The notes beneath the pieces are model-generated. The model did not search any database, had not been told where the DNA came from, and saw only the letters and a list, made by a program, of their open reading frames with translations. Shown one piece after another: positions 1,061 through 21,602 of a DNA stretch of 24,000 bases; the stretch's first letter is position 1, and the number at the start of each line of letters is the position of its first letter. The DNA comes from Candidatus Blautia faecipullorum (GTDB lineage: Bacteria > Bacillota > Clostridia > Lachnospirales > Lachnospiraceae), in the NCBI GenBank assembly GCA_019115125.1, contig DXEG01000060.1, positions 23,725 through 47,724 on the forward strand, written 5' to 3'. Position numbers and translations under genes: made by a program.

Positions 1061-4000
1061 ATGCAAATTATTGATCTTAAGAAAAGTACCACTGGAAAAT
1101 TGATGATTACATGGGAGGTTTTATTTCCCACCAATTTTGCTGACACATTAAGAAAATGTATGGACAGTGATTCCGTCCATAGGTATTTAGGCGGTGTGTC
1201 CGCTAAAAGATTCGATTCTGACGAAAAAGAAGAAATGCAGAAAGTTCTTGTCCGTATGCTTTTCGATAAAGAATATCGCTTACATGTACAAGATGGTATC
1301 GATATTACCGACAAGAAAAAATCCCAGTTCGATAAATATTTTAACGATGCACAGGGAAATCAGGATTATAACGCTGTAATTACACATATCTTTAACTGCG
1401 CTAAGTCCGGAAACTATGACTACTATTCCTTTTCTTTTACCCAAAGCCTTAAGAAGAAACTTATAGATTTATTTAATCTCTTTCCAGCTGATTATAGACA
1501 GGCATATGAGAAAGATGTCCAAAGCTTAATCGAGCAACATTTCGATAGCCATCAACAATTAAGCAAATATAAAAATGCTCTTTTAAACGTTGATTTTCCT
1601 GATCGGATTACCTGCCTTGTCTGTATTGCAATGACCTGGCCAATTTGGGATGAAAATTCAAAGCAAGCTACAGATTTAGCAAACCTTATTTTTCCCTCGG
1701 ACAACATTGAAATCATTGCTCTTGAGAAAAGTACCACTGGAAAATTGATGATTACATGGGGGGTGTTATTTCCCACCAATTTTACTGACACATTAAGAAA
1801 ATGTATGGACAGTGATTCCGTCCATACGTATTTAGGCGGTAAGTCCGACGAAGGATTCGATTCTGACGAAGGCGAAGAAATGCAGAAGGTTCTTGTCCGT
1901 ATGCTTCTTGATAAGGAATATCGTTTACGTACACAAAATGGTGTCGATATTACTAACAAGAAAAAATCCCAGTTCAATAAATATTTTAACTATGCACAGG
2001 GGAAAAAGGATTATGAAGCTGTGATTACACGTATCTTTAACTGCGCTAAATCCGGAAACTATAACTACTATTCTTTTCCTTTTACCCAAGACCTTAAGAA
2101 GAACCTTATAAATTTATTTAAACGCTTTCCATTTGATTATAAACAGAGATATGAGAAAGATGTCAAGATCTTAATCAAGCAGCATTTTGGTAGCCATCGA
2201 CTATTAAGCAAATATAAAAATGCTCTTTTAAACGTTGATTTTCCTGATCGGATTACCTGCCTTGTCTGTATTGCAATGACCTGGCCAATTTGGGATAAAA
2301 ATTTAAAGCAAGCTACAGATTTAGCAAACTTTATTTTCCCATCTGAATCATCAGACAATATTAATTCCACTGAAACCAACGCGAAAATATTAAATTATAC
2401 CGATTCAGAAAAGAAAACTGCTGCGGCTAAATCAGCAGAGGCTCACGAGCTATTCAATAAAAATGACTACCAAAAGGCAGCGGAGCTTTTTATAGAGATA
2501 ACAGATCATAAATTAGCAGATGATAATACCCTTGCTGATGCTTATTACCACTGTGCCTTGTGTATATTAGACCATAAGGCACGTATCGAAAATGTTAATG
2601 CCCGACAGTTATTATTAGAGGCTATTTGGCGTTACAATTCTAATGCCGCCATCCAGCGTTACAAAACAGAATACAAGGAAGATCTGGAAACAATACCACT
2701 TATACGTGATTTTTCACAGACACATGGAAAAGCAAGAATCATTTTAAATGCAGTTAATGAATATACTGCCGCATTCAAAGAATCTCTGCCAAAAGAAATG
2801 CAGAGCAAAGAAGAAAGGAAAAAGCTAATAACCTTTGCGGCTACCCGAGCTCAATGGGAACAGCAAGTCGATTCCATCAAAGATTTAAACATAGATTGCC
2901 GATTCTTATTATTTGATGATGATTCAGAAAAGAATTTTAAGGATTTAATATATATTCTAAACCATATATCAGCTTTGCAACAGGAAGCAACATTGGCTAA
3001 CCATACTAAAACGCTCCTTCGTTGGCACAAAACAGTCATTTACATAAGAGCAAGAGAGACTGAATACTCCGTCTTAATTGATACCGCATTAAAAAGATTG
3101 GGTAATTATACCATCCGAGTATATATCATTGATGATAATAAATGGGCCGCACAATATCTGTTATATCAGCACCCCTTGTTCCGCCCTATTCAGCACATTG
3201 ATGCGCGGACACTACAGAACACAGCCATCACACTGTCTTTTACCATTATTACCGATCAAAATCCAGACCTGACCTGCTGGTTGGTTAAAGAAGCCTTCTG
3301 GCTTGGATGTTTTAATTACAACAAACTTACACTGTCAATCAATATCGTTGGACCGGATTCAGAAAAGATTGATCAGCGACTGCGTTTTGAATGCCCTGGC
3401 ATATATGGCAAAACACCGGATTCTGATTCTGTTTCCAGAGTCATTATCAACAAACCATATGTAGTGGATTCTATTCACTCCAGCGATGCACTCAAAACTA
3501 TATGTGACTGTCATAACCCTGTAAATGCATTCAACTATTATGTGATAAATATCGGCAATAGTGCTGAAAATTTAAATTTTGCAATAAAGTTGCGAACTTT
3601 GTCTATTCGTAATCTTGTTAATTCGTATCAGAAGCTTCAAAATAGTTCTCTGCCAATGATAACCTTTTACTGTCCAGACTCAAACATCGCCCACTTATCC
3701 AAGCATATGGTTGTTCAAAATGTGAACAGCGGAGATCAGTGGTTCAATAACTATAATGTTAAGCCTTTCGGAATTATAAATGATCGTTACGCTTTTGAAA
3801 AACTGGATGGTGGATATTTGGAAAAAGTAGCACAATCTACGCACTTGCAGTATTGTCATATTGTGGCTTCTGATTCACGCACTCTAAAACTTGAAAAACT
3901 GAAAGACTATTTTTCATGGAGTTATAATCGGGATTCCTCTATGGCAGTAGCGCTTTCAATGCCATATCGGTTATTCCAGACCGTGACAGACACTAACGGG

Positions 4001-4946: not shown

Positions 4947-7900
4947 CTAAATATTTGAATTCCACAACGTCTCCGTCCCCCAGATCGTCACATTCATCTG
5001 ATTTGCCCGCTCCACAAACGCAGCTCTGCCCTTGTTCCGATAATCCGAAGAGACCGCCAGAACACCCTTTGACTGGAAGTGGTCTGACACCGCTCTGATC
5101 TCATACACCCACTGCATATTATCATTGTCGGAGGTCTTACATGAAACCATCGTGGCATTCATTCCGCTTAAGGCAATGATATCAATTTCATTTTTTACAG
5201 ACTCACCTTCACCAATGATAGCCTGTTTGATCACTTCTCCCCTGGCTTTTACATACTCGCTGTATCCAAAACAGGATGGGCCCTTTCGATCAAGCATTTC
5301 AATCAGCTTCTGCTCCTGTGGAGTATCTTCAGCATCCCAGGCAATCTTAACACCGGTTTCCACATCATCATATTTTCCGGATTCACGCATCAAGTAATAG
5401 ACAATCAACTCAAAAATCAGCCCCTGTGTTTTCATAAGCCGCATAGTGGCGGCATCACTGAATGCAAAAGTGACTGTATCGTCCTCTGTATTGAACTGCA
5501 GATTCTCTATGTATCTCCTCTGCAGAAGATCCTGCAGGAAGGCCAGTTTCACCTTTCTATGTACTTCTGTTTCCTCGGAAGATACGATCGGTGCCTGCTG
5601 CACAAGGCGGCTGGAAACCTTCAGGCCACCATTCATCGGAATAAATTTTAATGACTTATATTGATCCGTCTCGGTTATCTGTCCCATCTCAAACTGTTGC
5701 AGCAAACTTCCTATCTCCGGATTTACATATTCAAAATCAACCGTAACTATGGGGCCTGCAATATTTTTCTCATAATCACGAATGATATGATACGTCTGCA
5801 ATTGTTCCAGCACATTGCCAATCATTGAATTTCGGAAGATAGTTTCGGAAAATGAACCTGTATAATGTAGTTCATCACCTTCCAGATCCTGCTTTATTCC
5901 ATCACCATAATTCATGTCTTTTGCCGCCTGGGAAAAGAATTTTGTGACTGCTGCCCAAGTATTGAAACTGCCCGAAGCCTTTCCATTGGCGCCTTTAAGA
6001 TGTGTCGGCTCACAATATTTCTTAAACAATGCCATAATGGACTCGTACTCACTGCTGTCATAAAGGCCGGCATATTCATTGGCAATCCTCCCTCCCATAA
6101 GCTGAATATATTCTGCAAGCGAAAAATTCTTATTATCCAATCCGACACCAACATTTTTATCTGCTGAAAAAGATACAATTCCCTTATTTTGCAGATACTG
6201 AACAGCATTAATGTTACCCGTATACTTTTCCATCAGTCGTCCGATAGCAAGAGCTGCGTCATATCCTCTGTTTGGCACACAGTTAATAATGATATCATGA
6301 TGTCCATACTTTATAAGTTGCTCTTCGAGGCAAGCAAATATCGACTCAACATCCATGGATGATAATGTTATGAACTCCGGAACTGTATTATTTCCGCGGC
6401 TCTCAAAATAAATCGCAATCGCATTCTGGTATTTCCTGCTATTGACCGCTTTTCCAATAAATACAGCATTCTGCGCACAGAAAAGCGTTGGAATAATTAC
6501 ATCATATGTAGATGTGGTCATTCCATCACTCAGGGTGATTACTGTTCCGTACTTCTTCCCATACCAAAGTGCAAATGGCAGCATTTCCACCAACTGTTCA
6601 TCCAGGCTAAAGAAATCCATCCTCGCATTTCTGGTTTTAATTGGAGAAAGAATCTTGTTCACTTCCTCAATGTGATCCGCTTCCTCTGAAGAAATTGATA
6701 ACGCATATTCCCTAGCTGCATCCAGAGACTTCTGATAAAGCACCAGAGAATTATCGTCATCATTGGCCAGTTTCGAAATCGCACGTCTCAGGTTGGAATA
6801 CTCGGGACTATTGCCGACAACAAGATGAAGGACAGCTTCTATGTCAACCTGGCTGGACAGCTTTTTTGTAAGCTGATGTGCTCTCAGGCTGGCCCGGTCA
6901 AGTTCAGACGGATCGTTTGCCGGGCATTTTTTTCTGATCCATAAATCATACTGATGATCAAAGTCATTTGCCAACGAAGCTTTCGTTCCGCAATCACACA
7001 GACACATATGCAGGAGTCGCTGTTTATCCTGATGGGTATTGCCATTTTGGTAAAGCAGTGTTTCCTCTTCCTTAGGTGTCGGCGCACGGAACCCGCGTGT
7101 TACGGTATATGCATTCCAGCGACGATGTTCCAGGGCAACCAGACTCCAGTAAAGCTTATTCTTCTTGCGGATAGCTTCCTTTAGTGTATCCACCGGAGCC
7201 TTCTTTATGTCCACATTCTTACACATAGCCAGTTTTACCGGAATATGAACCGCAGATGCGAAGGAAGAATCCGCTGCATAATTTGCACCGATAAAATTGG
7301 CTGCGATACTGATATCTCCGATCTCATAGTCCTTGGGAGATTCCACAAACTCTGCAACTCTGCTTGCCTCAAACTGATCATCTGCATCCTTCTTATTGAT
7401 TCGCTGATCATATTTCATACTGTAGCTGAAATTGATATTGCGGGCAATTCGATCAAGTTCCGTGCCAGTCACAGATTCATTACCAAAGAAATGTACCTCG
7501 ATGCCATTGTCCCGTCCAGCTTCTATCAGCATCTCCTGCTCATCCGTACTGATGCTATCGGAAAGTTCGTTGAAGACATTGACAAGTATTCTGTGTCGCT
7601 GCCCTGCTGATTCTGCCTGTGCCCCGGAAATCTGTGTAATCAGTTCCGAAGCAGCCAGCCAGTTATGTTCCGCATCACCCAGAGAGATGATAATATAATT
7701 ATATCTATTAGCAGCAAAATCAAGCGGGGCCAGTCCGGCAGAATCCATTCCTTTTTCGACATCAATATCAACAAAACGCAGATTCGCATAATGTTTCTGC
7801 TCCGCATACAATTTAAGCGCAGGCATACATGCTCCGGCCTTCGTGGAAAGTACCTGTTCCTTATACGCTGCGGCGTTCTGAGAGGCAACTGTGATACTTA

Positions 7901-8084
7901 GTTCTGTATCCAGCGCCTGACTGGCCCAGAATGCCGCCTTGAATGCCTCGTTTCCGATCCAGCCAGTTCCAAGGATCAGAACATTGCTCTGCTTCTTGTT
8001 TCCTCTGATTTCTGCATATTCGCAGATTGGTTTTTCATATAGAAGATCATAAATCCGCAGTCGGTATTCGCCTATTTTTGCCAT
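4947..8084 (-). CDS. giant multidomain protein (1045 aa): NAD(P)-type Rossmann head, EHxRW (RyR-like) module, CARF-like domain, PD-(D/E)xK (Card1/Can2, DUF1887-like) nuclease
   Basis: GGGAGAAGGA lies 5 nt before ATG 8084. GxGxxG is present at residues 39-44 (VLILGTGWIGNEA). EHRRW is at 7116..7130, followed by RGF...LHMCLCDCG. Residues ~512-665 resemble the Card1 CARF layout (VITLSDG...; DIIINCVPNRGYDAALAIG; NFSLAEYIQLMGG, cf. Card1 LSLKEYLDAHG). The C-terminus has GLIFELIVYY (E892), NEIDIIA (D968) and MVSCKTS (S981-x-K983), a restriction-endonuclease-fold pattern with Ser in place of the usual Glu. Confidence 0.9.
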   Translation of the reverse strand: MAKIGEYRLRIYDLLYEKPICEYAEIRGNKKQSNVLILGTGWIGNEAFKAAFWASQALDTELSITVASQNAAAYKEQVLSTKAGACMPALKLYAEQKHYANLRFVDIDVEKGMDSAGLAPLDFAANRYNYIIISLGDAEHNWLAASELITQISGAQAESAGQRHRILVNVFNELSDSISTDEQEMLIEAGRDNGIEVHFFGNESVTGTELDRIARNINFSYSMKYDQRINKKDADDQFEASRVAEFVESPKDYEIGDISIAANFIGANYAADSSFASAVHIPVKLAMCKNVDIKKAPVDTLKEAIRKKNKLYWSLVALEHRRWNAYTVTRGFRAPTPKEEETLLYQNGNTHQDKQRLLHMCLCDCGTKASLANDFDHQYDLWIRKKCPANDPSELDRASLRAHQLTKKLSSQVDIEAVLHLVVGNSPEYSNLRRAISKLANDDDNSLVLYQKSLDAAREYALSISSEEADHIEEVNKILSPIKTRNARMDFFSLDEQLVEMLPFALWYGKKYGTVITLSDGMTTSTYDVIIPTLFCAQNAVFIGKAVNSRKYQNAIAIYFESRGNNTVPEFITLSSMDVESIFACLEEQLIKYGHHDIIINCVPNRGYDAALAIGRLMEKYTGNINAVQYLQNKGIVSFSADKNVGVGLDNKNFSLAEYIQLMGGRIANEYAGLYDSSEYESIMALFKKYCEPTHLKGANGKASGSFNTWAAVTKFFSQAAKDMNYGDGIKQDLEGDELHYTGSFSETIFRNSMIGNVLEQLQTYHIIRDYEKNIAGPIVTVDFEYVNPEIGSLLQQFEMGQITETDQYKSLKFIPMNGGLKVSSRLVQQAPIVSSEETEVHRKVKLAFLQDLLQRRYIENLQFNTEDDTVTFAFSDAATMRLMKTQGLIFELIVYYLMRESGKYDDVETGVKIAWDAEDTPQEQKLIEMLDRKGPSCFGYSEYVKARGEVIKQAIIGEGESVKNEIDIIALSGMNATMVSCKTSDNDNMQWVYEIRAVSDHFQSKGVLAVSSDYRNKGRAAFVERANQMNVTIWGTETLWNSNI

Positions 8085-8917: not shown

Positions 8918-9478
8918 CTATCGGATCACGCTATATGTCCTGTCAAATTCGTCTCTTTCAACGAAATTCCAATCACACTCGGTCACATTGCCTACATCAT
9001 CATAAGAAATACCGTAGAAAATGAGCATTGCATCCTCTGTGGCTGCCTCCATGGTTCCCCAAAGCTGCGCTGTATATCTCCGGTCTGAAGAAGCCTTATC
9101 AATGACCAGCCCCTTCTTTTCTACCAAAAACGTCACCTCAGGACACATCTCAAGCTTCGCATCCCAGGCTGGCAGAGGCTTCGGAATCTGCTCGAAGGTA
9201 TCTCCTTCGATATGTCTGTGATTCGCCTCAAAGTATTCCTTATCATTGGGATATGGACTGTCGGTACTATCCAGCTTGATCCAGTCACCAGCCATCGCTT
9301 TCTCTCCGCCGACAGCTCCGTTGACTGCCTCCCGCGAATGGATTTCATATCTGCCATCACCAAGATCGCAGATCTTGCCATTCAGCATCAGTTCTTTTAT
9401 AACAGCATTATCGCTTCCCAGCTGATAAGCCTTAACCAATTTTCCTTTATTCTTAATCACTTCATACATGATTTTCAC
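8918..9478 (-). CDS. hypothetical protein (186 aa)
   Basis: ORF-track frame with GAGGTG 6 nt before ATG 9478. Ordinary globular composition. No motif I recognise. Confidence 0.7.
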   Translation of the reverse strand: MKIMYEVIKNKGKLVKAYQLGSDNAVIKELMLNGKICDLGDGRYEIHSREAVNGAVGGEKAMAGDWIKLDSTDSPYPNDKEYFEANHRHIEGDTFEQIPKPLPAWDAKLEMCPEVTFLVEKKGLVIDKASSDRRYTAQLWGTMEAATEDAMLIFYGISYDDVGNVTECDWNFVERDEFDRTYSVIR

Positions 9479-9695: not shown

Positions 9696-11231
9696 TTACG
9701 CCGTTTTCTCGGATTTGTTGTAGTTTTCCACATCCTTTACCATACTTCCCATCCCTGCTTCTGCAAGGTTAATGAACGAAAGTACACGGTCGCTCCAGCC
9801 TGCAATGAGGTTAAAGCGTGCGCCGCAGAACTGCTGTGTACCATAGCCCTGAAGATCTACACCATGCACCCAGAAGTCTTTGTTGTACTTGCTGCGGTAT
9901 TTGTTCGCAAGCCCCTGTATGGTGGTTTCAAGACCACAGTTGCACTCGTTATCCGAGAAATAGATAACTCGGTCGAACGGCTTAAAGCGTTTGCCCTTAT
10001 CGACCTCCAATGCATATTCCATCGGAAGTGAAAGGTCTGTGCCACCGCCTGCAAATGAGTTCTGTAATGCAATTTCAAGAACAGAATCATACTTGCCATA
10101 GTTTGCGATACGATATCCTCTCTCTTCACTGTTTTTATACACATCCTCCGGGAATTGCATTCCGCGCCGTCTGTAGTATTCACGATAGAGAGTCTTCGAT
10201 GCTTCAAAGTAGCATACCGTTGCATCTTCGCAAAGCTTGTTTGTCATCGCCCCGAGTAAAGAAGCGATATCAGAGCAGCGGATATCGCTCTTTGCAGAAA
10301 TCCGACAGCTCATTGAACCGGATACATCAATGGCGATAAGTGTTCTGCCCTTGATTTTCTCCATATTATCAACCGAAGCCGTAACTGCGCTCTCGAGAGC
10401 ACGGTGAATCTCATCAGTCATGAGTCCTTCCTTCTCAAGCATGCGATAAGCGCTGAAGAAACGGAACGGAAGCTGCTTCGACTTCTTCACCTGAACCGAA
10501 TCAGAAAGTACCGCAAGCACCGGAGTGATATCCGCACCGGACATAATAATGTTGCGAAGGTTACGAAGCAATGCCATGTAGCCAACTTTGCCGGATGCAA
10601 TAAGCTCATCCCAGACTTCCCTTGTATTGCCACGAGAGGAAAGTTCCGTTTCCCAGGTGTACGGAGTCTCAAGGGTATCGTTTAAGATCTTCCCAAAGAG
10701 TTCCTCAATCTCTTTGGACTTCGGATTCGGATGTGTAATGCGGAGAATATCACGGAACTTCACATCTTTGCAGCCGCCATTGTATTTTGCAATCTGGTAC
10801 TCATCGAAGTTCTGGATCACCTCAGCCATCCCACGCTTTAATGCGTTCGGAAACGGCTTGCCATACATGGTCTTGTAGCAGGCCATGATTTCTGTAACAT
10901 CATCCGGACGTTTGACCACACTACAAATGGTCTGGCGGGTAAATGCAGATGCCTCGCGGGCGATCGCAGCGGTAAGCACATGGCTTACAGAACGCATGTT
11001 GAAAACCTCACGAGCAAAGCAGGCAAGGTTGCTAACAAACTCCGGGTGCTTCTTGCAGAGTTCTGTTGCAAGCTGGACGATTTCGTTATCCGTGGATCCA
11101 TAGTATTTTTCCTCGCTAAACATGGTGGTCACTACTGCTGTCATAAGTTGTTCCTTATTGCTCATTCGGTATGCTGCATGACCGGAACGGTTTTCGGTTT
11201 TGATTGTGTTGGTTGTGTTGAACTTAGCCAT
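9696..11231 (-). CDS. rsr: Ro60-related protein Rsr (TROVE domain + C-terminal vWA domain)
   Basis: 511 aa with GGAGGTG 6 nt before the ATG. The N-terminal and central TROVE-like sequence (NRSGHAAYRM...EKYYG...; GYMALLRNLRNI; KQLPFRFFSAY) is followed by a vWA MIDAS motif (LIAIDVSGSMS). Two Y-RNA-like genes lie immediately upstream, which is the classic rsr context. Confidence 0.9.
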   Translation of the reverse strand: MAKFNTTNTIKTENRSGHAAYRMSNKEQLMTAVVTTMFSEEKYYGSTDNEIVQLATELCKKHPEFVSNLACFAREVFNMRSVSHVLTAAIAREASAFTRQTICSVVKRPDDVTEIMACYKTMYGKPFPNALKRGMAEVIQNFDEYQIAKYNGGCKDVKFRDILRITHPNPKSKEIEELFGKILNDTLETPYTWETELSSRGNTREVWDELIASGKVGYMALLRNLRNIIMSGADITPVLAVLSDSVQVKKSKQLPFRFFSAYRMLEKEGLMTDEIHRALESAVTASVDNMEKIKGRTLIAIDVSGSMSCRISAKSDIRCSDIASLLGAMTNKLCEDATVCYFEASKTLYREYYRRRGMQFPEDVYKNSEERGYRIANYGKYDSVLEIALQNSFAGGGTDLSLPMEYALEVDKGKRFKPFDRVIYFSDNECNCGLETTIQGLANKYRSKYNKDFWVHGVDLQGYGTQQFCGARFNLIAGWSDRVLSFINLAEAGMGSMVKDVENYNKSEKTA

Positions 11232-11295
11232 TTGGGCACCTCCATCTTTCTTAAGTGTATGGGGAAATATGTGACTGTTTATATAAATAACATGC

Positions 11296-11422
11296 AGAGA
11301 ATAGGCGATAACAGTAAATATAACGCTTTCCCATTAAGCTACAGAACAGCTATGCTGTCCCAGTGGGATTCGAACCCACATCCCTCGATAACCAGACTCG
11401 AAGTAACTGCCATCTGCACTGC
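11296..11422 (-). ncRNA. yrlA: Y RNA, YrlA-type with tRNA-like module (copy 1, rsr-proximal)
   Basis: On the minus strand the ends form a long stem (GAUGGCAGU with ACUGUUAUC, including two G-U pairs). Enclosed are a variable-arm-like hairpin (CUUCGA...UCGAGG) and a T arm GUGGG-UUCGAAU-CCCAC (11363..11379). Next come an acceptor-like stem closed by a loop (UGGGACAG-CAUAG-CUGUUCUG), then UA and a D arm (GCUU-AAUGGGA-AAGC). This permuted tRNA mimic matches the published YrlA architecture. RNA ends are not determined. Confidence 0.8.
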
Positions 11423-11440
11423 TGCATGATATTTATCCTT

Positions 11441-11482
11441 CAAATGAAACTGCCGAACCGGTCGCTTCACTCAGCCCGGCAG
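11441..11482 (-). terminator. hairpin plus U-rich tract between the two Y RNA genes
   Basis: Minus strand reads CUGCCGGGC...GACCGGUUCGGCAG (stem with G-U pairs, plus coordinates 11450..11482) followed by UUUCAUUUG. It sits about 20 nt downstream of the distal Y RNA. Confidence 0.4.
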
Positions 11483-11500
11483 CTTCTGTAACCACATATA

Positions 11501-11627
11501 AGAGAATCGGCGATAACAGTAAACAAAGCGCTTGACCGTTAAGCTACGGAACAGCTCAGCCGTCCCGGTGGGATTCGAACCCACATCCCTCGATAACCAG
11601 ACTCGAAGTAACTGTTATCTGCACTGC
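11501..11627 (-). ncRNA. yrlA: Y RNA, YrlA-type with tRNA-like module (copy 2, distal)
   Basis: Same 127-nt architecture, offset 205 nt from copy 1. Terminal stem is GAUAACAGU/ACUGUUAUC (9 perfect bp). T arm is GUGGG-UUCGAAU-CCCAC. The closed acceptor-like stem is CGGGACGG-CUGAG-CUGUUCCG and the D arm is GCUU-AACGGUC-AAGC. Differences from copy 1 fall in loops or keep pairing (A-U to G-U, C-G to U-G). Confidence 0.8.
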
Positions 11628-11699
11628 CTATATGTAATTACCAATGTATCTGATGTGTCTGTGCTTTCGTCTTAATCTTCCAAGACTCATCAGGGGCGT

Positions 11700-11786
11700 T
11701 CATTGCCCGAGCACAATGTGCTTCGGTAAAGGTTCCACCGGATTGTACGCTATCCGGCTTCTTTGAATAAATCCTGACCAATACAT
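11700..11786 (-). CDS. possible 28-aa upstream ORF or leader peptide
   Basis: AAAGGAGGAGGT lies 4 nt before ATG 11786. It translates MYWSGFIQRSRIAYNPVEPLPKHIVLGQ. The region also contains hairpins (CCGGAT-N8-ATCCGG), so it may be a structured leader rather than coding. Confidence 0.25.
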   Translation of the reverse strand: MYWSGFIQRSRIAYNPVEPLPKHIVLGQ

Positions 11787-11830
11787 CCGACCTCCTCCTT
11801 TCGATGATTCAATATTAAACCCTTATTTTT

Positions 11831-11866
11831 GTTTCAGCATCTGTGGCATCCCACAGAAACTGAAAC
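11831..11866 (-). other. nested inverted repeat / RNA hairpin downstream of the AAA+ gene
   Basis: GTTTCAG-cat-CTGTGG-catc-CCACAG-aaa-CTGAAAC, with 7-bp outer and 6-bp inner arms. No U-tract follows on the minus strand, so it is not a canonical terminator. Confidence 0.5.
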
Positions 11867-11870
11867 TGTC

Positions 11871-11888
11871 TTTGAAACTTTTGAAACA
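11871..11888 (-). promoter_or_regulatory. two adjacent copies of the TTTGAAAC(T/A) motif
   Basis: TTTGAAACT at 11871-11879 and TTTGAAACA at 11880-11888. They sit 27-44 nt after the AAA+ stop and about 85-100 nt upstream of the 11786 uORF. Confidence 0.35.
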
Positions 11889-11914
11889 CATTTCTGATCA
11901 AATCATGCCTACTG

Positions 11915-13291
11915 TCAGGCCCCGGCAGGAAGAGCTGTTTCCTCCTCTGGTACGATTGTTATGACAATATTTTCGATATCACCTGACAGTAAAACCTTGT
12001 GGCCTTTGTATCGACCAATATTGCGATCATACACAGTTGCTGCTGTGATTGCCTCTCTCACAGCGTCCCTGACGCCCCTGGCGCCATAGTTGCTGTGCTG
12101 TTCCTTCAGCTGCACCATTAGTTCCTCGTCCATATGCTCAAGTTCCATCTCGTAATTCTGCAGCTCTTCCACTACAAATTTGCTGACGATGTCTGTAAGC
12201 GCATCTGCGGGAAGTTCACGGAAAGCCAGACAGTTCGTAATCTTGCCGGCGATTTCCGGATGACCGCAGGCCTTAGCGAGAGTGTTTCTACAAATCTCCT
12301 TCTTTCGGAATGCTGACGCCTCTTCATAAACCTTCATATCTACCGGAATGTTGCTGGTAATGACAAAAATCACATGGCTCAGATCAATATCCGGTGAATT
12401 GTCCGCAAGGTGAACCACACCGCTGGAAAAGCATTCCATAAGCCCGGTATAGATACGATCCGTTGCCTTCTCAATCTCGTCCAGCAGGAAAACCTGGTAT
12501 GGATTGGATCGGACAGGCTCAAACACTGTAGGATCCTTATAGCCTATATAGGAAGGCGGAGATCCGAAGAATCTGTTGACCGAATGCTCACCAATGAACT
12601 CGTTGAGGGCAATCTGATGAAACCCATAAGCCTGTCCGGTCAGCTTCTCCAGTGCTCCCGGAAGAGCTTTTCCAACCTCTGTTTTGCCAACACCGGTCGG
12701 GCCAAAGAGAACAATAACCTCAACTTCTGGCTTTTTTCTGCGGAGATTTGCTGAAATCAGTTCACTGATCTTTTTGATAGCTTCGTCCTGTCCGTAAATA
12801 CCACGCTTCAGTTCCGCCGCCAGTTCATCCGGCCAGACCGTTTTTGTCTGCTTCTTCTGTTCAAGTTCACGGACTTTATCCTTATCCACAATGTATTTTG
12901 AGCTGCCTGCAGCTGTCTCGTTCTCACTTGTCTGCGACAAAGTTACTGCAGATTTCATCGGATTTTTCTCAGCTTCCTGCGATTTTTCCAGCACTGTATA
13001 ACTCCACACCTGATCGGTATTGCAGATTGTTACAGTTCCACCATCCTCCTCTGGCTTGAATTCGATGACCATATCCACAGCCGGAATGTCCTGCGGCAGG
13101 CTCACACGTCCCGCCTCCATACAGGTTTTATCAGCAAAGTTAACGTGGTAAATCTCCATCTCTTTTTTCCCGCTGATTCCCTGAAGCATTTTCCTCAGAC
13201 CACTTTTACCACTCATCAAAATGACAGATGTCAAATGACCACGGTCTTCATCGAAACCAATTACGATACAGTCTTTATCTGAATATCTCAT
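11915..13291 (-). CDS. Clp/Hsp100-type AAA+ ATPase (single ClpB/ClpA D2-like module) with a novel ~180-aa N-terminal domain
   Basis: IYGQDEAIKKI..., Walker A (LFGPTGVGKTEVGKAL), FFGSPPSYIGYKD, Walker B (FLLDEIEKA) and sensor (VITSNIP) follow the AAA_2 (ClpB D2) pattern. Start set at ATG 13291 (GGAAAGGGGGA 7 nt upstream) rather than ATG 13333, which has no SD. Confidence 0.85.
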   Translation of the reverse strand: MRYSDKDCIVIGFDEDRGHLTSVILMSGKSGLRKMLQGISGKKEMEIYHVNFADKTCMEAGRVSLPQDIPAVDMVIEFKPEEDGGTVTICNTDQVWSYTVLEKSQEAEKNPMKSAVTLSQTSENETAAGSSKYIVDKDKVRELEQKKQTKTVWPDELAAELKRGIYGQDEAIKKISELISANLRRKKPEVEVIVLFGPTGVGKTEVGKALPGALEKLTGQAYGFHQIALNEFIGEHSVNRFFGSPPSYIGYKDPTVFEPVRSNPYQVFLLDEIEKATDRIYTGLMECFSSGVVHLADNSPDIDLSHVIFVITSNIPVDMKVYEEASAFRKKEICRNTLAKACGHPEIAGKITNCLAFRELPADALTDIVSKFVVEELQNYEMELEHMDEELMVQLKEQHSNYGARGVRDAVREAITAATVYDRNIGRYKGHKVLLSGDIENIVITIVPEEETALPAGA

Positions 13292-13333
13292 GTGAGATTC
13301 CCCCTTTCCTTTTGATAAGTCCATTTCCTGCAT

Positions 13334-14050
13334 CTATCGATATTTGCATAACAGGTTAACGTTTACCTTCTCATATGCATTGAATTCATTAGCGATTTCT
13401 TCATCGGACTTACCGGCTACCGGCTCATACCAGTCCTGTGCACTGAAATAGTCAATATTCTCCTGTATTTTGAACTCTCTCCCATGGCGTGCATACATCT
13501 CATTGATGATCATTTGAATCTCATCGCTGCTATAACCTTCAATATCTGATACCTCCAGGTATCGATCCGCACTATCCGGCATCAGATAGGCTGGCATTGC
13601 TGCATTCTCTTCAGATGTTGCTTCATTATCAGAATCAATGTCCTGAACCTCCTCCGCTGTGAAGGTGTCATCTTCCATCGTATCGGACAGAACCTGCTCA
13701 TTCATGTAGTTGGTGATGGCCTGCTCTTCCGAAGATACATGAGAACGGTTATAGAAAAACGCTCCAATAAACAAGGAAATTACAGCACAGACAATAACTG
13801 ACTTCCACGGAATTCCTGTATGGACAGTTGTTCCAGCCGTGCCAATGGTATGAATCATATTGCCTGCATTACCTGTTGTCCTGTCGTTTCCGGCTGCTGT
13901 CTGCGGACGATATGTCCTGGTTGTTCTTACAATTCTCTGATTCCTCTGGGCCCTGTGATCAGCTTCCGCCTGAGACACATTATCCAATGTGGTTCTTCCG
14001 GTTCTGTCATCTTTATAGTATCGTTTTCCATTGATCAGTACATAACTCAT
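13334..14050 (-). CDS. single-pass membrane protein with C-terminal YARHG domain
   Basis: Start set at ATG 14050 (GTAAGGAGG 8 nt upstream, MSYVLINGKRYY...). One TM helix (WKSVIVCAVISLFIGAFFY), an acidic linker, then the literal YARHG motif (INEMYARHGREFKIQENIDYFSAQDWY). Confidence 0.8.
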   Translation of the reverse strand: MSYVLINGKRYYKDDRTGRTTLDNVSQAEADHRAQRNQRIVRTTRTYRPQTAAGNDRTTGNAGNMIHTIGTAGTTVHTGIPWKSVIVCAVISLFIGAFFYNRSHVSSEEQAITNYMNEQVLSDTMEDDTFTAEEVQDIDSDNEATSEENAAMPAYLMPDSADRYLEVSDIEGYSSDEIQMIINEMYARHGREFKIQENIDYFSAQDWYEPVAGKSDEEIANEFNAYEKVNVNLLCKYR

Positions 14051-14079
14051 TAGAAACGCCTCCTTACAAAACCGTCCGT

Positions 14080-14466
14080 TCACTTACTGGACTCATAATG
14101 CATCCTGATACGAGCAAATACATCTTCAGCAGTAAGATGCCCCAGTACAGTATCATGAACTCTGTCCATCTCTTCCCGTGTCATCAGTCCGCTGATTTCA
14201 AGAAGTCCCTCAGAAGATCCGTGCCCGTTTGCAATAACACTGCATACAGCGCCTTTGCCCGGTCCCTGCCAGACATTACTGTTACTGTCTTTCGGCTTCG
14301 GACGCCCTTCCGATCCGTAGTAGCAAATCTGCATTCCAAAGTTTTCAAATGGAATACCTGCTTCTGTCAGCAAATCATCCAGTTTCTCCAATTCATCGGA
14401 AGCATTGCCTTCAGCAAAGCCACCGGAAAGTGCCATCATCAGTTTAAGTAAATCCATTGTGCTCAT
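14080..14466 (-). CDS. hypothetical protein (128 aa)
   Basis: ORF-track frame with CAGGAGGAATACAAA before ATG 14466. First gene after the 97-nt spacer that follows E1. No motif recognised. Confidence 0.7.
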   Translation of the reverse strand: MSTMDLLKLMMALSGGFAEGNASDELEKLDDLLTEAGIPFENFGMQICYYGSEGRPKPKDSNSNVWQGPGKGAVCSVIANGHGSSEGLLEISGLMTREEMDRVHDTVLGHLTAEDVFARIRMHYESSK

Positions 14467-14555: not shown

Positions 14556-14564
14556 TTTGAAACT
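14556..14564 (-). promoter_or_regulatory. TTTGAAACT motif abutting the E1 stop codon, with a second GTTTCAG half-site and GTTTC/GAAAC inverted repeat next to it
   Basis: TTTGAAACT at 14556-14564 and CTGAAACT at 14545-14552. On the minus strand these are AGTTTCA repeats 11 nt apart (start to start). GTTTC-tgct-GAAAC lies at 14538-14551. About 90 nt upstream of ATG 14466. Confidence 0.35.
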
Positions 14565-15916
14565 TATGCTACAATATTACATCCAATATCTGAAGATGAT
14601 TTCTCTGCTCCGCAATAGGAGCAGGAATCATTTTTCTGCGCCGGTCCGGACTTCCAGGTAAACGGCCTGCGTTCATCCTCTGTACCAAACAGATGCATGT
14701 ACGGATTAACATCCTGATCTATCGGATAATTTAGCAGCACCGTACACTGATTGATGTATGGAAGCAGTTTTGCCTCATAGCCTTCCTCATGCTCCATCAA
14801 AATGTCGATAGCCAGCTTTGTTTCAAAGATCGCTGTAAGCTGGATATCCAGATACATCCCCGGCTGGAAATGAAGCTTCTCAAGCTCTGTCTCCGTTGCA
14901 TAGAAACGCCTGCGCACCGCCTGATTGCTGTAATCGACACCCTTATCTTCGCCATAAGCACAGGTGTAGCATGCCATGCCGGAATTCGGTTTATACCAGA
15001 ACACCTCTCCTGTGGAGCCTCTTGGGCCACAGCCTGCATCAATCATCGGAATGTTGTATTTATCTGCCAGCTCGTTACAAACATAGCCGCAATGACGATT
15101 ATCCGCACAGCAAAGGATAATGGAATCCTTCCAGATAATCTTCTCAAGTTCAGCAGGATCCACATGCTGGATCAGATCTCTGAAGGTATAAATCTTGCAG
15201 TTCGGATTGATGTCAGCAGCTCTTTCCTTGAAACAGTCAACTTTATAGCGACCTACATCATGGATACCACATTCGTGACGGCAAACATTGTGATAAGCAA
15301 GGATGTCATTGTCAGCCACGATCAGGGAACCGATTCCCGCTCTTACCAGTTCCAGACCGACCTTAAAACCGCCGGATCCGATACCGGAAATAATAGCCTG
15401 CTTTGCTGCCATTCTATCCTGCTCTACGATTCCTTGATTTCTGGAAAATACATCCTGGCGTGTGGAGTAATAATCAATATTGATCTCTGATCCGGAATTA
15501 TCTCTGACAAAGATTTCTGCCTGCTCTTCATTCCAGACAATGGAAAGACCAAACTGACCGAAAATGTCACCGTCTTCTCTCCCTGTGTGCTCTTTTCTGA
15601 CCGCCATACCCAAGACCTTCGCATCTGTTCTTGCATCGTATAGCGCCTCCTGTACGATGTTATAGGTTTTAGTCTCTGGGTGGTAATAGCCCCAAAGTTC
15701 ACCCTCATAACGCTGCTTCCGGTATTCTTCCGGAATCAGAACCGTGTATGGTCTGAGCGCCTCCTGAATCTTTTCAAAGTCCATGAAGTCTTCCTCAGAT
15801 GTTCCTTTCTCTGCCGTATTGTCCATGAAAGTAACTTCTGCAGTTTCTGTCTTAACCGGTTCTGTTTCGGCCGATACCGCTGCCTTCTGCAATGCATTTG
15901 CTGTTCTGTTATCCAT
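14564..15916 (-). CDS. ThiF/MoeB-family E1-like activating enzyme (Bil D-like position)
   Basis: Rossmann ATP site (IISGIGSGGFKVGLELVRAGIG), IVADNDILAYHNVCRH (cf. vD.D.v..sNLnRQ), LCCADN, and CxxC pairs (MACYTCAY; CSYCG). Start set at ATG 15916 (GGAGGAGG 8 nt upstream). Alternative starts are 15958, 15826 and 15781. Confidence 0.85.
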   Translation of the reverse strand: MDNRTANALQKAAVSAETEPVKTETAEVTFMDNTAEKGTSEEDFMDFEKIQEALRPYTVLIPEEYRKQRYEGELWGYYHPETKTYNIVQEALYDARTDAKVLGMAVRKEHTGREDGDIFGQFGLSIVWNEEQAEIFVRDNSGSEINIDYYSTRQDVFSRNQGIVEQDRMAAKQAIISGIGSGGFKVGLELVRAGIGSLIVADNDILAYHNVCRHECGIHDVGRYKVDCFKERAADINPNCKIYTFRDLIQHVDPAELEKIIWKDSIILCCADNRHCGYVCNELADKYNIPMIDAGCGPRGSTGEVFWYKPNSGMACYTCAYGEDKGVDYSNQAVRRRFYATETELEKLHFQPGMYLDIQLTAIFETKLAIDILMEHEEGYEAKLLPYINQCTVLLNYPIDQDVNPYMHLFGTEDERRPFTWKSGPAQKNDSCSYCGAEKSSSDIGCNIVA

Positions 15917-16569
15917 ATATTTTTCCTCCTCCGGGTGTCCCCTGAACAAATCGGACAATCTTGTGCGGATTGATCCTTTATCTTCGGCTGCTGCAAGCGT
16001 TCCACGCTCTGCTTTTTGGCCGCCTTTCTTGCGGCTTCATTACGTTCTACAGTTTCTTTGAGTCTTCGCAGGGCAATACGGGGCATAGCCGCTCTGACTG
16101 CCTTATCGTTGATCTCATACTCTACTTCCGTCTCGTCGCCATTCTCATCAATATACCAGAACTTAATCCGGAATTCAGGGTCAATGAAGATGAGTCCGTT
16201 TACAACGCCGCCAAACTGCTGCGCAAGCTTGATATTTGCCGGATGATCACCATGGCTGAAATGCAGGTACCCGTCCGGATGTCTGTGAACCTGAGAGACT
16301 GTCAGCTTACCGTTTGAGAAATCATAATATTCGCTGAGTCGTGTCGATAAGTGGTCTGCATAAACATGATCCTTCTCACACATAGTTGGCGTATAGGTGG
16401 CATTGATGCCGCTATCCGATACCATGTCAAAAAAGAAGTCATTTCCGATGCGGATGCCCGGCATCTGGATAATGCTTTCGTTTCCGGGATGCCGCCCCAC
16501 CTCGAGCAGCATCCCTCTGTAGGTATTGTGGGTAATATAAACATGATACTTATCTTTTCGCTGAAACAT
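15736..16569 (-). CDS. JAB/JAMM (MPN+) metallopeptidase (Bil C-like position)
   Basis: Complete JAMM signature: upstream Glu (MLLEVGR) and HRHPDGYLHFSHGD (HxH-x7-S-xx-D). ATG 16569 has GGAGG 5 nt upstream (the track's 16575 start is GTG). The last ~60 codons are extremely Arg/Lys-rich and overlap the E1 gene by 181 nt. Confidence 0.8.
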   Translation of the reverse strand: MFQRKDKYHVYITHNTYRGMLLEVGRHPGNESIIQMPGIRIGNDFFFDMVSDSGINATYTPTMCEKDHVYADHLSTRLSEYYDFSNGKLTVSQVHRHPDGYLHFSHGDHPANIKLAQQFGGVVNGLIFIDPEFRIKFWYIDENGDETEVEYEINDKAVRAAMPRIALRRLKETVERNEAARKAAKKQSVERLQQPKIKDQSAQDCPICSGDTRRRKNIWITEQQMHCRRQRYRPKQNRLRQKLQKLLSWTIRQRKEHLRKTSWTLKRFRRRSDHTRF

Positions 16570-20195: not shown

Positions 20196-21602
20196 TTAAC
20201 CGTACAACGGCATTGTAAACAGAAACGGATCTTCACACGCAAGTGAAACCACTGCTTCACCGTTCTTCAGTTTCAACAGATTCCAGTCTTCCACCGTGTG
20301 ACCGGCCCGCTGGATATTGAGATTTGCCTGCTGTACGGAAAGACTGAAGTTCTGGTAGTTCTCACCCAGGCGATTGATAACAAACTGTCTGGTATCGTAA
20401 TCGTTCGATCTGAACGCCACAATGTTCTGGAAAGACGACAGGATGTTCCTTGCGCCGGCCACCCCATATTGCTCTTCAAGTCCGCATGTATTCTGAAGTC
20501 CGCACATCATTCTGACTCCCAGAGAACGCCCGAAATTTAAACTGTCTGATAAATGCTCAAGCCTCGGAAGAAGGAGCATTTCGTCTAACAGAAAGTACTT
20601 ATTGGTTTTCATCTGTTGTCTTCCACCCAGTGCGTTAGCAAGAGCTCTGTCGATGAGAATGCCATACATAGGGGCTAGCAGTCTGCCTTTACGAAGGTCA
20701 TACTCAATAAAGACAACTTTCTTATTTCCACTGCATATGATATCTCGCATAGAGAACTCTCTTGCCGGATCAGCCTGTGCAAACGGACCGACGAACATCT
20801 TCTTCAACATGGAACTGACATAAGAGTTCACTCCCTGCGTCTGGTTTCCCTTGCCTGAGATATAGTCAATGCAGCTGCGTTGATCAGACATATAATCCAG
20901 ACTGAGAATCTTCTTAAGATCCTCATTGGTACTGTGAGTAAAGAAATTGATAAATTCTTTGTTATTCAGCTTCGACTGATCAAAACGCCAGTAAGTCTTC
21001 ATGAAATAAATCATGACAGCTGCAACAACCTGCTCTGCCATTGCCGGAAAAACAGGCTGTGTTTCACTTCGCATGGACTGAAACAGCTGCTCACAAAGTT
21101 CCAGTGCATCTTCGTTGGATTCCGGCGTATAGACCAGTTTCCCATCATTTCCCCGTGGCATTACTTCTGCAAAAATATTATGATAGGAGGTAACCCTGCG
21201 ATATGCATCGCCATTGCCGATGATAACCTTCATGCTGTCCGGAATTCTGCTTCCGAAAGTCTCCAGATAATCACCCTTCGTATCGAAGATGATAATCACA
21301 TCTGTCGGCTGCATGGTGGCAAGCATGCGATCCAGTGTCATATTAAAAAAATTGGTCTTACCAGTGCCAGGCGCCCCAAGAGCCAATAAGCCATAGGCAA
21401 GTATATCTCTGCTCAAACCGAACAATCTCTTAGTCTTCGGATCCTGAAATGCAACAAACGGACTTCGTGATTTATCCGCTGTCCATACAGGAACCGGAAT
21501 GTCTCCGATGCTCTGTCCTAAGATGGTCTTGGTGTACATACCACTGTTTCTTTCCTGATTGCTGCCTGTCCCGATTCGTTTATGTCCAAAATCATATGCC
21601 AT
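20196..21602 (-). CDS. TraG/TraD/VirD4-type (FtsK-HerA superfamily) P-loop ATPase, soluble (468 aa, no TM segment)
   Basis: AAGGAGGG lies 7 nt before the ATG. Walker A (LGAPGTGKTNFF), Walker B (YFLLDEMLLLP) and GVRMMCGLQNTCGLEEQYG (cf. the coupling-protein motif Qs..QL...YG). Confidence 0.8.
   Translation of the reverse strand: MAYDFGHKRIGTGSNQERNSGMYTKTILGQSIGDIPVPVWTADKSRSPFVAFQDPKTKRLFGLSRDILAYGLLALGAPGTGKTNFFNMTLDRMLATMQPTDVIIIFDTKGDYLETFGSRIPDSMKVIIGNGDAYRRVTSYHNIFAEVMPRGNDGKLVYTPESNEDALELCEQLFQSMRSETQPVFPAMAEQVVAAVMIYFMKTYWRFDQSKLNNKEFINFFTHSTNEDLKKILSLDYMSDQRSCIDYISGKGNQTQGVNSYVSSMLKKMFVGPFAQADPAREFSMRDIICSGNKKVVFIEYDLRKGRLLAPMYGILIDRALANALGGRQQMKTNKYFLLDEMLLLPRLEHLSDSLNFGRSLGVRMMCGLQNTCGLEEQYGVAGARNILSSFQNIVAFRSNDYDTRQFVINRLGENYQNFSLSVQQANLNIQRAGHTVEDWNLLKLKNGEAVVSLACEDPFLFTMPLYG

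Follow-up and report, generated by a model that had tools for sequence, protein, structure and literature searches.

Ribonucleoprotein particles (RNPs) of Ro60 and Y RNAs are conserved from bacteria to humans, and in Salmonella, the Ro60-family gene rsr is part of an RNA repair operon with the layout rsr-yrlBA-rtcBA. Tandem YrlA-like RNAs near rsr were known before, and binding by Rsr in vivo and modification by TruB/DusA count among the criteria for a YrlA-type Y RNA. YrlA RNAs have been defined by V, T, closed acceptor-stem (AS), and D stem-loops and by being encoded no more than 4 kb from a Ro60 orthologue, on its strand (Chen et al. 2014, PMC4201824), and the same features were described in the paper on the YrlA crystal structure (bioRxiv 10.1101/312249). 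A GNCGAAN0-1G motif near the 5′ end was proposed as the Rsr contact of YrlA, both YrlA and YrlB were described as noncoding RNAs (ncRNAs) bound by Rsr, and nucleotide modifications of the tRNA type were found on YrlA in vivo (Chen et al. 2014, PMC4201824). Here, we describe an rsr locus in a 24,000-nt stretch of DNA from Candidatus Blautia faecipullorum (contig DXEG01000060.1, positions 23,725 to 47,724; hereafter “the window,” whose numbering we use throughout), in which the rsr gene is preceded on the minus strand by two tandem tRNA-like units, and these in turn by a hammerhead ribozyme. We consider it very probable that this is a Ro60/Y-RNA RNP locus of a gut-Clostridia lineage, situated in the variable, defence-like island of a conjugative element, with the hammerhead at the head of the Y-RNA array. 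The pairing of Rsr with tandem YrlA-type RNAs has been known, and the locus contributes divergent new members; the ribozyme-headed Y-RNA array appears to be new: a link between a natural hammerhead and Ro60 or Y RNAs was not found in the open-access literature that we covered, an absence that is no proof.

The product of rsr displays the domain order of the Ro60/Rsr family, with a TROVE domain (the HEAT-repeat ring) first and then a vWA domain that bears a MIDAS. The 511-aa protein matched the Pfam families TROVE with 120.5 bits (E = 1.4e-34; cut-off 23) and vWA_Ro60 with 44.1 bits (E = 2.6e-11; cut-off 27.7), and a MIDAS-like DVSGS motif can be read in its translation. Upon comparing a profile of 15 Rsr homologues with solved chains, we obtained the closest matches with 9l5y and 9kop, each named “TROVE domain-containing protein” (2.3e-42), and further matches with human Ro60 (9nen, 5.5e-11), Xenopus Ro60 (1yvp, 6.4e-8), and the Rsr of D. 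radiodurans (2nvo, 2.1e-5). Its low score with the NCBIfam Rsr equivalog (see below) marks the window protein as a divergent branch of the Ro60/Rsr family.

In the region 11150-11950, a repeat finder returned a single direct-repeat family, with copies at 11296-11422 and 11501-11627 that were 127 nt long, 89% identical, and offset by 205 nt. Together with the Pfam matches, this bore out the arrangement described in a first-pass annotation of this DNA, a TROVE+vWA gene preceded on the same strand by two such units. The unit length of 127 nt given there was too short, as the repeat is the core only and extra basal stems outside it had been overlooked; the complete units measure ~140 nt each, and 60 and 263 nt separate them from the rsr ATG downstream. 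When the minus strand was folded, both the minimum free energy (MFE) and the centroid structure of each unit consisted of a closing stem around four hairpins (-42.1 and -39.8 kcal/mol for the two units): a 6–base pair (bp) V-like hairpin (CUUCGA/UCGAGG), a T arm (GUGGG-UUCGAAU-CCCAC), a closed acceptor-like stem of 8-9 bp that leads into a UA linker, and a D arm of 4 bp (GCUU/AAGC). Each unit thus mimics a tRNA in circularly permuted form, with the Y stem in the position of the anticodon stem and with a loop closing the acceptor stem. The terminal stem and permuted mimic of the first-pass annotation were accordingly recovered, but its statement that they form on the minus strand only was too strong, since the plus strand folds as well, albeit into a weaker mirror structure (-32.7 and -24.8 kcal/mol). 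Single-sequence folding z-scores of the units were unremarkable (-1.4), so the case for Y RNAs rests on comparative evidence.

Such evidence begins with the two copies themselves. Between them, the upper stem changes from GAUAACAGU to GAUGGCAGU opposite ACUGUUAUC, which turns two A-U pairs into G-U pairs, and the acceptor stem changes from CGGGACGG/CUGUUCCG to UGGGACAG/CUGUUCUG (C-G to U-G, G-C to G-U, and G-U to A-U); these differences can be read from the sequence exactly as they had been listed. The basal stems outside the repeat differ between the copies in a compensatory manner. That of the upstream unit could be extended to about 11643/11487 in a long fold, and in a fold of 546 nt, both units formed independent domains with closing stems that were longer still. 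In related loci, every unit carries a basal stem of 7-9 bp outside the 127-nt repeat, with sequences such as CACACAG/CUGUGUG, CAUACAG/CUGUAUG, and UCUGCAG/CUGCAGA. The basal and upper stems are separated by an invariant module with G-C-A-G-Y-G-Y-A in the 5′ strand and UUCU at the end of the 3′ strand, for which RNAalifold predicted a G-C pair, a bulged C, and then A-U and G-C pairs. Ro60 contacts a bulged helix in other Y RNAs (PMC4201824), and from its position and by analogy with that helix, the bulged-C helix would be the presumptive Rsr-binding site.

For a wider comparison, we used 50 related rsr loci (denoted by L numbers below) that were obtained from genome, metagenome, and viral scans and from exact-protein look-ups, and we built a covariance model, R1, from 21 homologous units. 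R1 identified 58 units in 40 sources, all of them on the rsr strand and nearly all immediately upstream of rsr, as well as 14 further units in 11 additional loci. Within the 24-kb window, it matched two sites only, with 152.6 bits at 11288-11429 and 150.8 bits at 11492-11635; with filters off, the next-best match reached 10 bits. Over 26 distinct tRNA-like units, 95.9% of the cells were standard pairs, and compensatory double changes occurred in 22 of 40 pairs, as compared to 3-11 when the partners were slid by 1-3 columns. All six helices were supported, and none of 500 shuffles matched the observed covariation values, where it should be borne in mind that the alignment was fitted to the model, that the sequences are related, and that the shuffle control is not a probability. 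An independent MAFFT alignment combined with RNAalifold yielded compensatory changes in 15 of 28 pairs. G-U pairs made up 117 of the 1035 cells (~11%) of the 26-unit alignment, and one and the same interval scored 150.8 bits with R1 on the minus strand versus 7.3 bits on the plus strand. On the basis of these G-U pairs and this difference in score, we consider the strand settled as minus.

The units share the architecture of YrlA. They lie on the same strand as the Ro60 orthologue and within 4 kb of it, in the window and in at least 40 related loci, and their V, T, AS, and D stem-loops follow in the YrlA order inside an end-to-end stem, as seen in the MFE folds, the covariation, and the RNAalifold structure. 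The nucleotides of the tRNA elbow are likewise present, namely, those of the T loop (U, U, C, and A in 26 of 26 units), the D loop (first A in 26 of 26, and the two G in 22 and 26 of 26), the UA linker (U in 26 of 26 and A in 24 of 26), and the YUAY motif before V (here UUAC, in 23-26 of 26 at each position), with V ending in a pyrimidine in all 26. The Rfam YrlA model (RF02553), which the first-pass annotation had named as a check, matched both units and nothing else in the window, with 26.5 bits at 11530-11588 and 23.2 bits at 11325-11383; these matches cover the tRNA-like core alone (model positions 27-81) and fall short of the gathering score of 69. The best relative in this respect, L004, attained 45 bits over the full model.

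On the minus strand, a complete type III hammerhead ribozyme precedes the first Y RNA, separated from it by 23 nt in the window and by 16-23 nt throughout the clade. In a permissive Rfam scan, the full Hammerhead_3 model (RF00008) matched 11660-11715 (-) with 26.1 bits, versus a gathering score of 48.5. The element comprises a 7-bp stem III (UUGUGCU/AGCACAG), which is open; a 4-bp stem I (GGGC[AAUGAAC]GCCC) and a stem II of 5-7 bp (GUCUU..AAGAC), which are both closed by loops; and a final GAAA. Its catalytic core is intact (CUGAUGA ... GAAA, an A15.1-U16.1 pair with U16.1 at 11710, and C17 at 11709), which predicts cleavage after C11709, i.e., between 11709 and 11708, and the local MFE structure of the region was exactly the three-stem fold. 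The first-pass annotation had overlooked this element, which lies just outside the interval that it covered.

The hammerhead occupies a fixed place in related loci. A structural descriptor gave one match each in 17 of 51 sources, without exception on the rsr strand and ahead of the first Y RNA, with no other match on either strand of the 275 kb scanned and none in five shuffles of these 275 kb. Two orthologous hammerheads scored above the gathering score (L001, 56.9 bits; L011, 53.9 bits), and the others reached 29-39.5 bits. Among eight distinct variants, the core and C17 were invariant, and compensatory changes occurred in stem I (G-C/A-U, G-C/U-A, and C-G/U-A), stem II (U-A/G-C), and stem III (G-C/C-G/A-U), as evaluated by a core-anchored decomposition, which we used instead of an alignment by MAFFT alone that shifted stem III by one column. 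Counting loci with an Rsr identity of at least 74% and enough upstream DNA, 20 of 21 displayed a hammerhead or a recognisable remnant at this place (in L010, the hammerhead region is cut by the contig end). Degenerate copies, with changes that look inactivating, were found in L040 (2505-2562; C3U), L043 (1041-1098; G12C and a stem II mismatch), and L022 (2215-2278; two stem III mismatches). The hammerhead travels with the module where the upstream genes differ (L009 and L044), and each array has a single one, even that of L009, where it is followed by a Y RNA, a tRNA-Leu(CAG), a Y RNA, and a YrlB-like RNA. Beyond the rsr loci, a pattern scan of IMG/VR for a hammerhead plus Y motif yielded four unrelated contigs without Rsr or Y RNA, and a BLASTN search with the RNA region gave no match among PLSDB plasmids or INPHARED phages.

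Two further ideas about the hammerhead were rejected. Models of circular RNA or excision need two ribozymes, and there is one hammerhead per locus and no other ribozyme family nearby. A hairpin that could sequester stem III as a switch (GAAGCAC AUU GUGCUC in the window) was not kept in relatives, as assessed by eye.

A number of findings weigh against this reading of the locus and are gathered here. Regarding the protein and the units, the NCBIfam equivalog “RNA-binding protein Rsr” (NF041674) scored 22.7 bits against a cut-off of 900; a scan of the whole window at the Rfam gathering thresholds returned no match, as neither RNA family reaches its gathering score; the GNCGAAN0-1G motif is absent from the 5′ strand, where the conserved GCAGYGYA bulged helix stands in its place; and the covariation values come with the provisos given above. 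With the GNCGAA motif absent and NF041674 below its cut-off, we infer Rsr binding of the units from their position and conservation alone. Regarding the hammerhead, the window copy is the lowest-scoring variant, with its 4-bp stem I, and in the MFE structure of 546 nt, the hammerhead fold was not the predicted one. It has decayed in three lineages (L040, L043, and L022) where the Y RNAs and rsr are intact, and it occurs in none of the 25 loci with an Rsr identity of 72% or below, 19 of which have adequate upstream DNA; most of the latter do have Y RNAs, for which the hammerhead is thus generally dispensable. A permissive all-family Rfam scan of 15 of these loci found no other ribozyme class. 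Moreover, ~73 nt (50 nt of ribozyme and the 23-nt spacer) would still be located 5′ of the Y RNA after cleavage, so that a further trimming step must be postulated, and co-transcription of the module is assumed, while a consensus scan called no sigma-70 promoter at the conserved 5′ block (11806..11893) and no promoter or terminator in the RNA region. Because the Rfam scores lie far below the gathering score and the GNCGAAN0-1G motif is absent, we assign the units to a divergent subfamily in Clostridia; that they are YrlA-type Y RNAs, as the first-pass annotation had proposed, is supported by architecture, covariation, and position. In this subfamily, the protein has changed together with the RNA-binding module.

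The same points on the hammerhead lend some weight to the view that it is a relic or a chance resemblance that hitch-hikes in mobile DNA, which we consider unlikely. The low score of the window copy relative to the gathering score, the decay in three lineages, and the lack of a hammerhead in sister clades with Y RNAs would all fit this view, as would the frequency of hammerheads without an assigned function in prophages and other mobile contexts (PMC3088659). Chance resemblance is excluded by the descriptor results, with zero matches in shuffles and exactly one match per locus at a fixed position and strand. As for a relic, all of the core nucleotides are intact in the window, the spacing of 16-23 nt to the first Y RNA is maintained, the element stays with the module when flanking genes change, and its stems covary across the eight variants, which requires selection for pairing.

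More improbable still is that the units are cis-acting leader elements of the rsr mRNA, either autoregulatory Rsr-binding sites or tRNA-sensing elements, rather than trans-acting Y RNAs. A leader would explain why they reside on the same strand directly upstream of rsr, with the last unit ending ~60 nt before the start codon, why the spacer between this unit and rsr is highly conserved, and why no promoter or terminator of their own was called. Yet, loci differ in the number of copies (one to five) and in the modules inserted, which have been exchanged among them; this pattern agrees better with gene-like cassettes than with a leader. Three loci (L049, L031, and L033) have a unit downstream of rsr, and its own long closing stem makes each unit a self-contained domain. 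The relatives that have been studied, YrlA and YrlB, are Rsr-bound ncRNAs, and YrlA is modified like a tRNA in vivo (PMC4201824).

We give very little credence to the idea that the units are tRNA genes, pseudogenes, or tRNA-derived repeats (e.g., integration-site remnants) with an incidental link to rsr. Against the perfect T arms (GGUUCGAAUCC), the D arms, the class-II-like variable hairpin, and the presence of a real tRNA-Leu(CAG) with a variable-arm loop like the V loop in the L009 array, there stand a circularly permuted order of the arms, an acceptor stem that is closed by a loop and has no free ends, a bulged-C closing stem that is common to units without any tRNA-like part, and the association with rsr across at least 40 loci. 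A true tRNA or transfer-messenger RNA (tmRNA) in the window was rejected, as ARAGORN called neither, and the matches to tmRNA and to a plastid 3′ untranslated region (3′-UTR) in a permissive Rfam scan were merely the 17-nt T arm. Least credible of all is that the plus-strand open reading frame (ORF) that runs across the downstream copy (10980-11429, 149 aa), which does exist as the first-pass annotation noted, is a real gene behind the conservation of that copy: its 149 codons are open from an ATG start, but neither Pfam nor NCBIfam gave a match, some 250 nt run antisense to the rsr ORF, which is itself well supported, an RNA whose covariation, G-U pairs included, fits the minus strand accounts for the rest, and the second repeat copy lies in no comparable ORF.

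With the locus read as a Ro60/Y-RNA locus headed by a hammerhead, we propose a mechanism in which the minus-strand module would be transcribed as one precursor in the order of 5′ block, short leader with mini-ORF, hammerhead, Y RNA, stable hairpin, Y RNA, and rsr. The hammerhead would cleave itself after C11709 and detach the leader, which would leave a 2′,3′-cyclic phosphate on the upstream fragment and a 5′-OH on the Y-RNA precursor. Host exonucleases could then trim the precursor down to the closing stems protected by Rsr; in the Bacillus glmS case, it is RNase J that acts on a 5′-OH end. The mature Y RNAs would bind the Rsr ring via the bulged helix, and their tRNA-like elbow might recruit a tRNA-binding partner, as proposed for YrlA. 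The likely role of the hammerhead would hence be to free the Y-RNA precursor from its 5′ leader, and for a mobile element, a built-in ribozyme is a plausible host-independent route to this 5′ end. A bolder version, which we hold tentatively and regard as doubtful, is that the hammerhead is a selected part of a mobile cassette with the job of 5′ maturation, that interchangeable “bait” modules sit on a common Ro-binding stem, and that the whole acts as a conflict or defence device together with the ClpB-like ATPase, the YARHG protein, and a 186-aa protein encoded next to rsr. The baits would then be permuted tRNA mimics, unpermuted tRNA-like inserts, and short hairpins. Within this version, the 2′,3′-cyclic-phosphate and 5′-OH ends that the ribozyme makes might also serve as a signal or as the substrate of a ligase.

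The arrays of relatives are modular. In L004 (2223-2973), we observed five units, three of them tRNA-like and two with other inserts, and in L002 (2835-2944), the tRNA-like module of the second unit is replaced. The L009 array (3125-3944) consists of the hammerhead, a Y RNA, a genuine tRNA-Leu(CAG), a Y RNA, and a YrlB-like unit, where the loop of the tRNA-Leu variable arm (UCUGGUUAA) is similar to the Y-RNA V loop (GUCUGGUUA). Three loci (L033, 2278-2390; L027, 1113-1273; and L032, 254-414) carry an unpermuted tRNA-like insert within the same Ro-binding closing stem, a design unlike the permuted YrlA and one in which ARAGORN or Rfam calls a tRNA. In L013 (2303-2445) and L022 (2302-2444), there is a single chimeric unit with a 5′ half of the upstream type and a 3′ half of the downstream type, which leaves the basal stem unable to form; either recombination between the tandem copies deleted 205 nt or the repeat collapsed during assembly. 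An IMG/VR scan with the Rsr profile returned one distant TROVE locus, the viral contig L039 (1996-2498), where a protein with 32% identity is preceded by three Y-like units and a tRNA-Ser and where no hammerhead is present.

Table 1. Coordinates of the RNA module and of neighbouring genes in the window.
Feature	Position	Strand	Remarks
rsr, Ro60-family protein (TROVE ring + vWA/MIDAS)	9696..11231	-	511 aa; ribosome-binding site GGAGG 8 nt before ATG
Y RNA, downstream copy (copy 1 of the first-pass annotation)	11291..11428	-	Basal stem CAUGCAG/CUGCAUG, bulged-C helix, upper stem, permuted tRNA-like module
Y RNA, upstream copy	11494..11635	-	Basal stem ACAUAUAGG/CUUAUAUGU, bulged-C helix, upper stem, permuted tRNA-like module
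Type III hammerhead ribozyme	11659..11716	-	Rfam, structural descriptor, local MFE, orthologue covariation
Conserved stable hairpin between the two Y RNAs, then UUUCAUUU	11446..11486	-	-27 kcal/mol, z = -4.3, 0 of 200 shuffles as stable
Leader mini-ORF with strong Shine-Dalgarno, MYWSGFIQRS...GQ*	11700..11786	-	N-terminal codons conserved
Conserved 5′ block: AGTTTCA direct repeats, inverted TGAAAC, then GGTTTAATATTGAA	11806..11893	-	Aligns across loci with differing upstream genes
186-aa ORF directly downstream of rsr	8918-9478	-	Co-conserved with rsr at >=78% identity
ClpB/DolB-like AAA_2 ATPase	11915-13333	-	
YARHG protein	13334-14083	-	
ThiF/E1-E2-like protein	14564-15958	-	
1045-aa protein, CARF_PDDEXK-like C-terminus	4947-8084	-	
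TrwB/TraG-type coupling protein	20196-21602	-	

Further parts of the RNA module are conserved to different degrees (Table 1). The stable hairpin between the two Y RNAs is kept after the U-type unit in six relatives (L001, L002, L009, L016, L040, and L043), where its apical sequence varies and its pairing is retained; a terminator scan did not call it, and it is possibly a leaky terminator or a hairpin that protects the 3′ end of the first Y RNA. The first seven codons of the leader mini-ORF are conserved in L001, L006, L009, L022, L040, and L043, where the ORF has 7-8 codons. Its length is not conserved, L016 lacks it, and it has no Pfam match. In the window, a deletion of ~80 nt extends the mini-ORF over the hammerhead cleavage site, so that cleavage would leave a non-stop message, and it is uncertain whether the mini-ORF is a functional member of the module. 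The conserved 5′ block, which is kept in every locus that has the module, is presumed to be a regulatory or promoter (or operator) region. Between the mini-ORF and the hammerhead, four relatives (L001, 2400-2525; L002, 2440-2550; L009, 2990-3120; and L043, 915-1035) carry a conserved structured element of ~130 nt with the sequence ACCCGCCC..GGACRGUAC..AAAGGYRCUGYGGUGCGCAACRYAGCGUGG..GAUAGUGCACGAU..CCCCUU. This element, which had no Rfam match and may be a new regulatory RNA, is mostly deleted in the window, with a remnant at about 11727-11747 (-).

The wider setting has the appearance of an island for defence or conflict that is carried by conjugative elements of gut Clostridia. The block of YARHG, AAA_2 ATPase, RNAs, Rsr, and 186-aa ORF is kept in the clade with an Rsr identity of at least 78%, while the slot after the 186-aa gene is variable in relatives and holds TIR/LRR, TIR/TPR, or nuclease genes; among the neighbours of other members were a relaxase, NADAR-DarT1, DUF488, and RtcB. 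The 186-aa protein belongs to a family of about 100 clusters that is confined to Clostridia, and it had no match in Pfam, NCBIfam, or PADLOC. Its confident AlphaFold model (predicted local distance difference test, pLDDT, 92.5) is mostly beta and had no Foldseek match in the PDB. None of RtcB, RtcA, and RtcR is encoded in the 24 kb, and among the relatives, only L044 has rtcB, on the opposite strand. No known PADLOC system includes Rsr.

The locus bears on the question of which effector is bound by the tRNA-like domain of YrlA and on the maturation of Y RNAs. It documents a large divergent Clostridia subfamily below the Rfam and NCBIfam thresholds; as the current models miss this subfamily, such loci are annotated solely with spurious ORFs. 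It further ties a predicted self-cleaving ribozyme, fixed in position and with natural knock-outs in L040 and L043, to an ncRNA array as its defined downstream product, and thereby suggests, for a bacterial hammerhead, a natural function that can be tested and, for Y RNAs, a route of maturation. To our knowledge, most of the thousands of bacterial hammerheads are without a known function, and the one described here would, if the bolder version above is true, be the first among natural bacterial hammerheads to which a job can be assigned, namely, the host-independent 5′ maturation of the noncoding RNA of an RNP. A Ro60 RNP with swappable RNA modules in the defence island of a conjugative element also suggests a role in phage or element conflict beyond stress RNA decay.

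How does the locus compare to the systems described before? The glmS ribozyme is a metabolite-dependent cis ribozyme that generates a 5′-OH end and leads to mRNA decay. Here too, the 5′-OH end made by a cis ribozyme would decide the fate of the downstream RNA, but the window shows no evident ligand-binding element, and maturation rather than decay is the presumed outcome for the downstream product. With type III hammerheads (RF00008; Perreault et al. 2011, PMC3088659), the element shares the canonical core, the A15.1-U16.1 pair, C17, closed stems I and II, and an open stem III, and with bacterial and prophage hammerheads (PMC3088659), it shares its occurrence in the mobile DNA of a Clostridia-type host. 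Unlike the flanking pairs or triplets in prophages (PMC3088659), it is single, so that one would not expect a gene-length or circular RNA to be excised, and it is fixed directly upstream of one ncRNA array rather than between variable prophage genes. As in the Salmonella rsr-yrlBA-rtcBA operon, rsr and two adjacent Y RNAs lie on one strand. Two relatives (L002 and L009) combine one tRNA-like unit with a shorter YrlB-like RNA, whereas both units in the window are tRNA-like and have the ClpB/DolB-like ATPase, YARHG, ThiF/E1-like, and 186-aa proteins as their neighbours. With YrlA (RF02553; PMC4201824; bioRxiv 10.1101/312249), for which several copies per locus are already known, the units share their same-strand position beside rsr, the long closing stem that carries the Ro-binding module, the permuted tRNA mimic, and the elbow nucleotides. 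They differ from YrlA in that they carry, instead of the 5′ GNCGAAN0-1G, an invariant GCAGYGYA that has a bulged C and faces UUCU, that their V region forms a regular 6-bp hairpin resembling the variable arm of a class II tRNA, that a hammerhead heads the array, and that the locus resides in a mobile, defence-like island with no rtcB/rtcA in the window.

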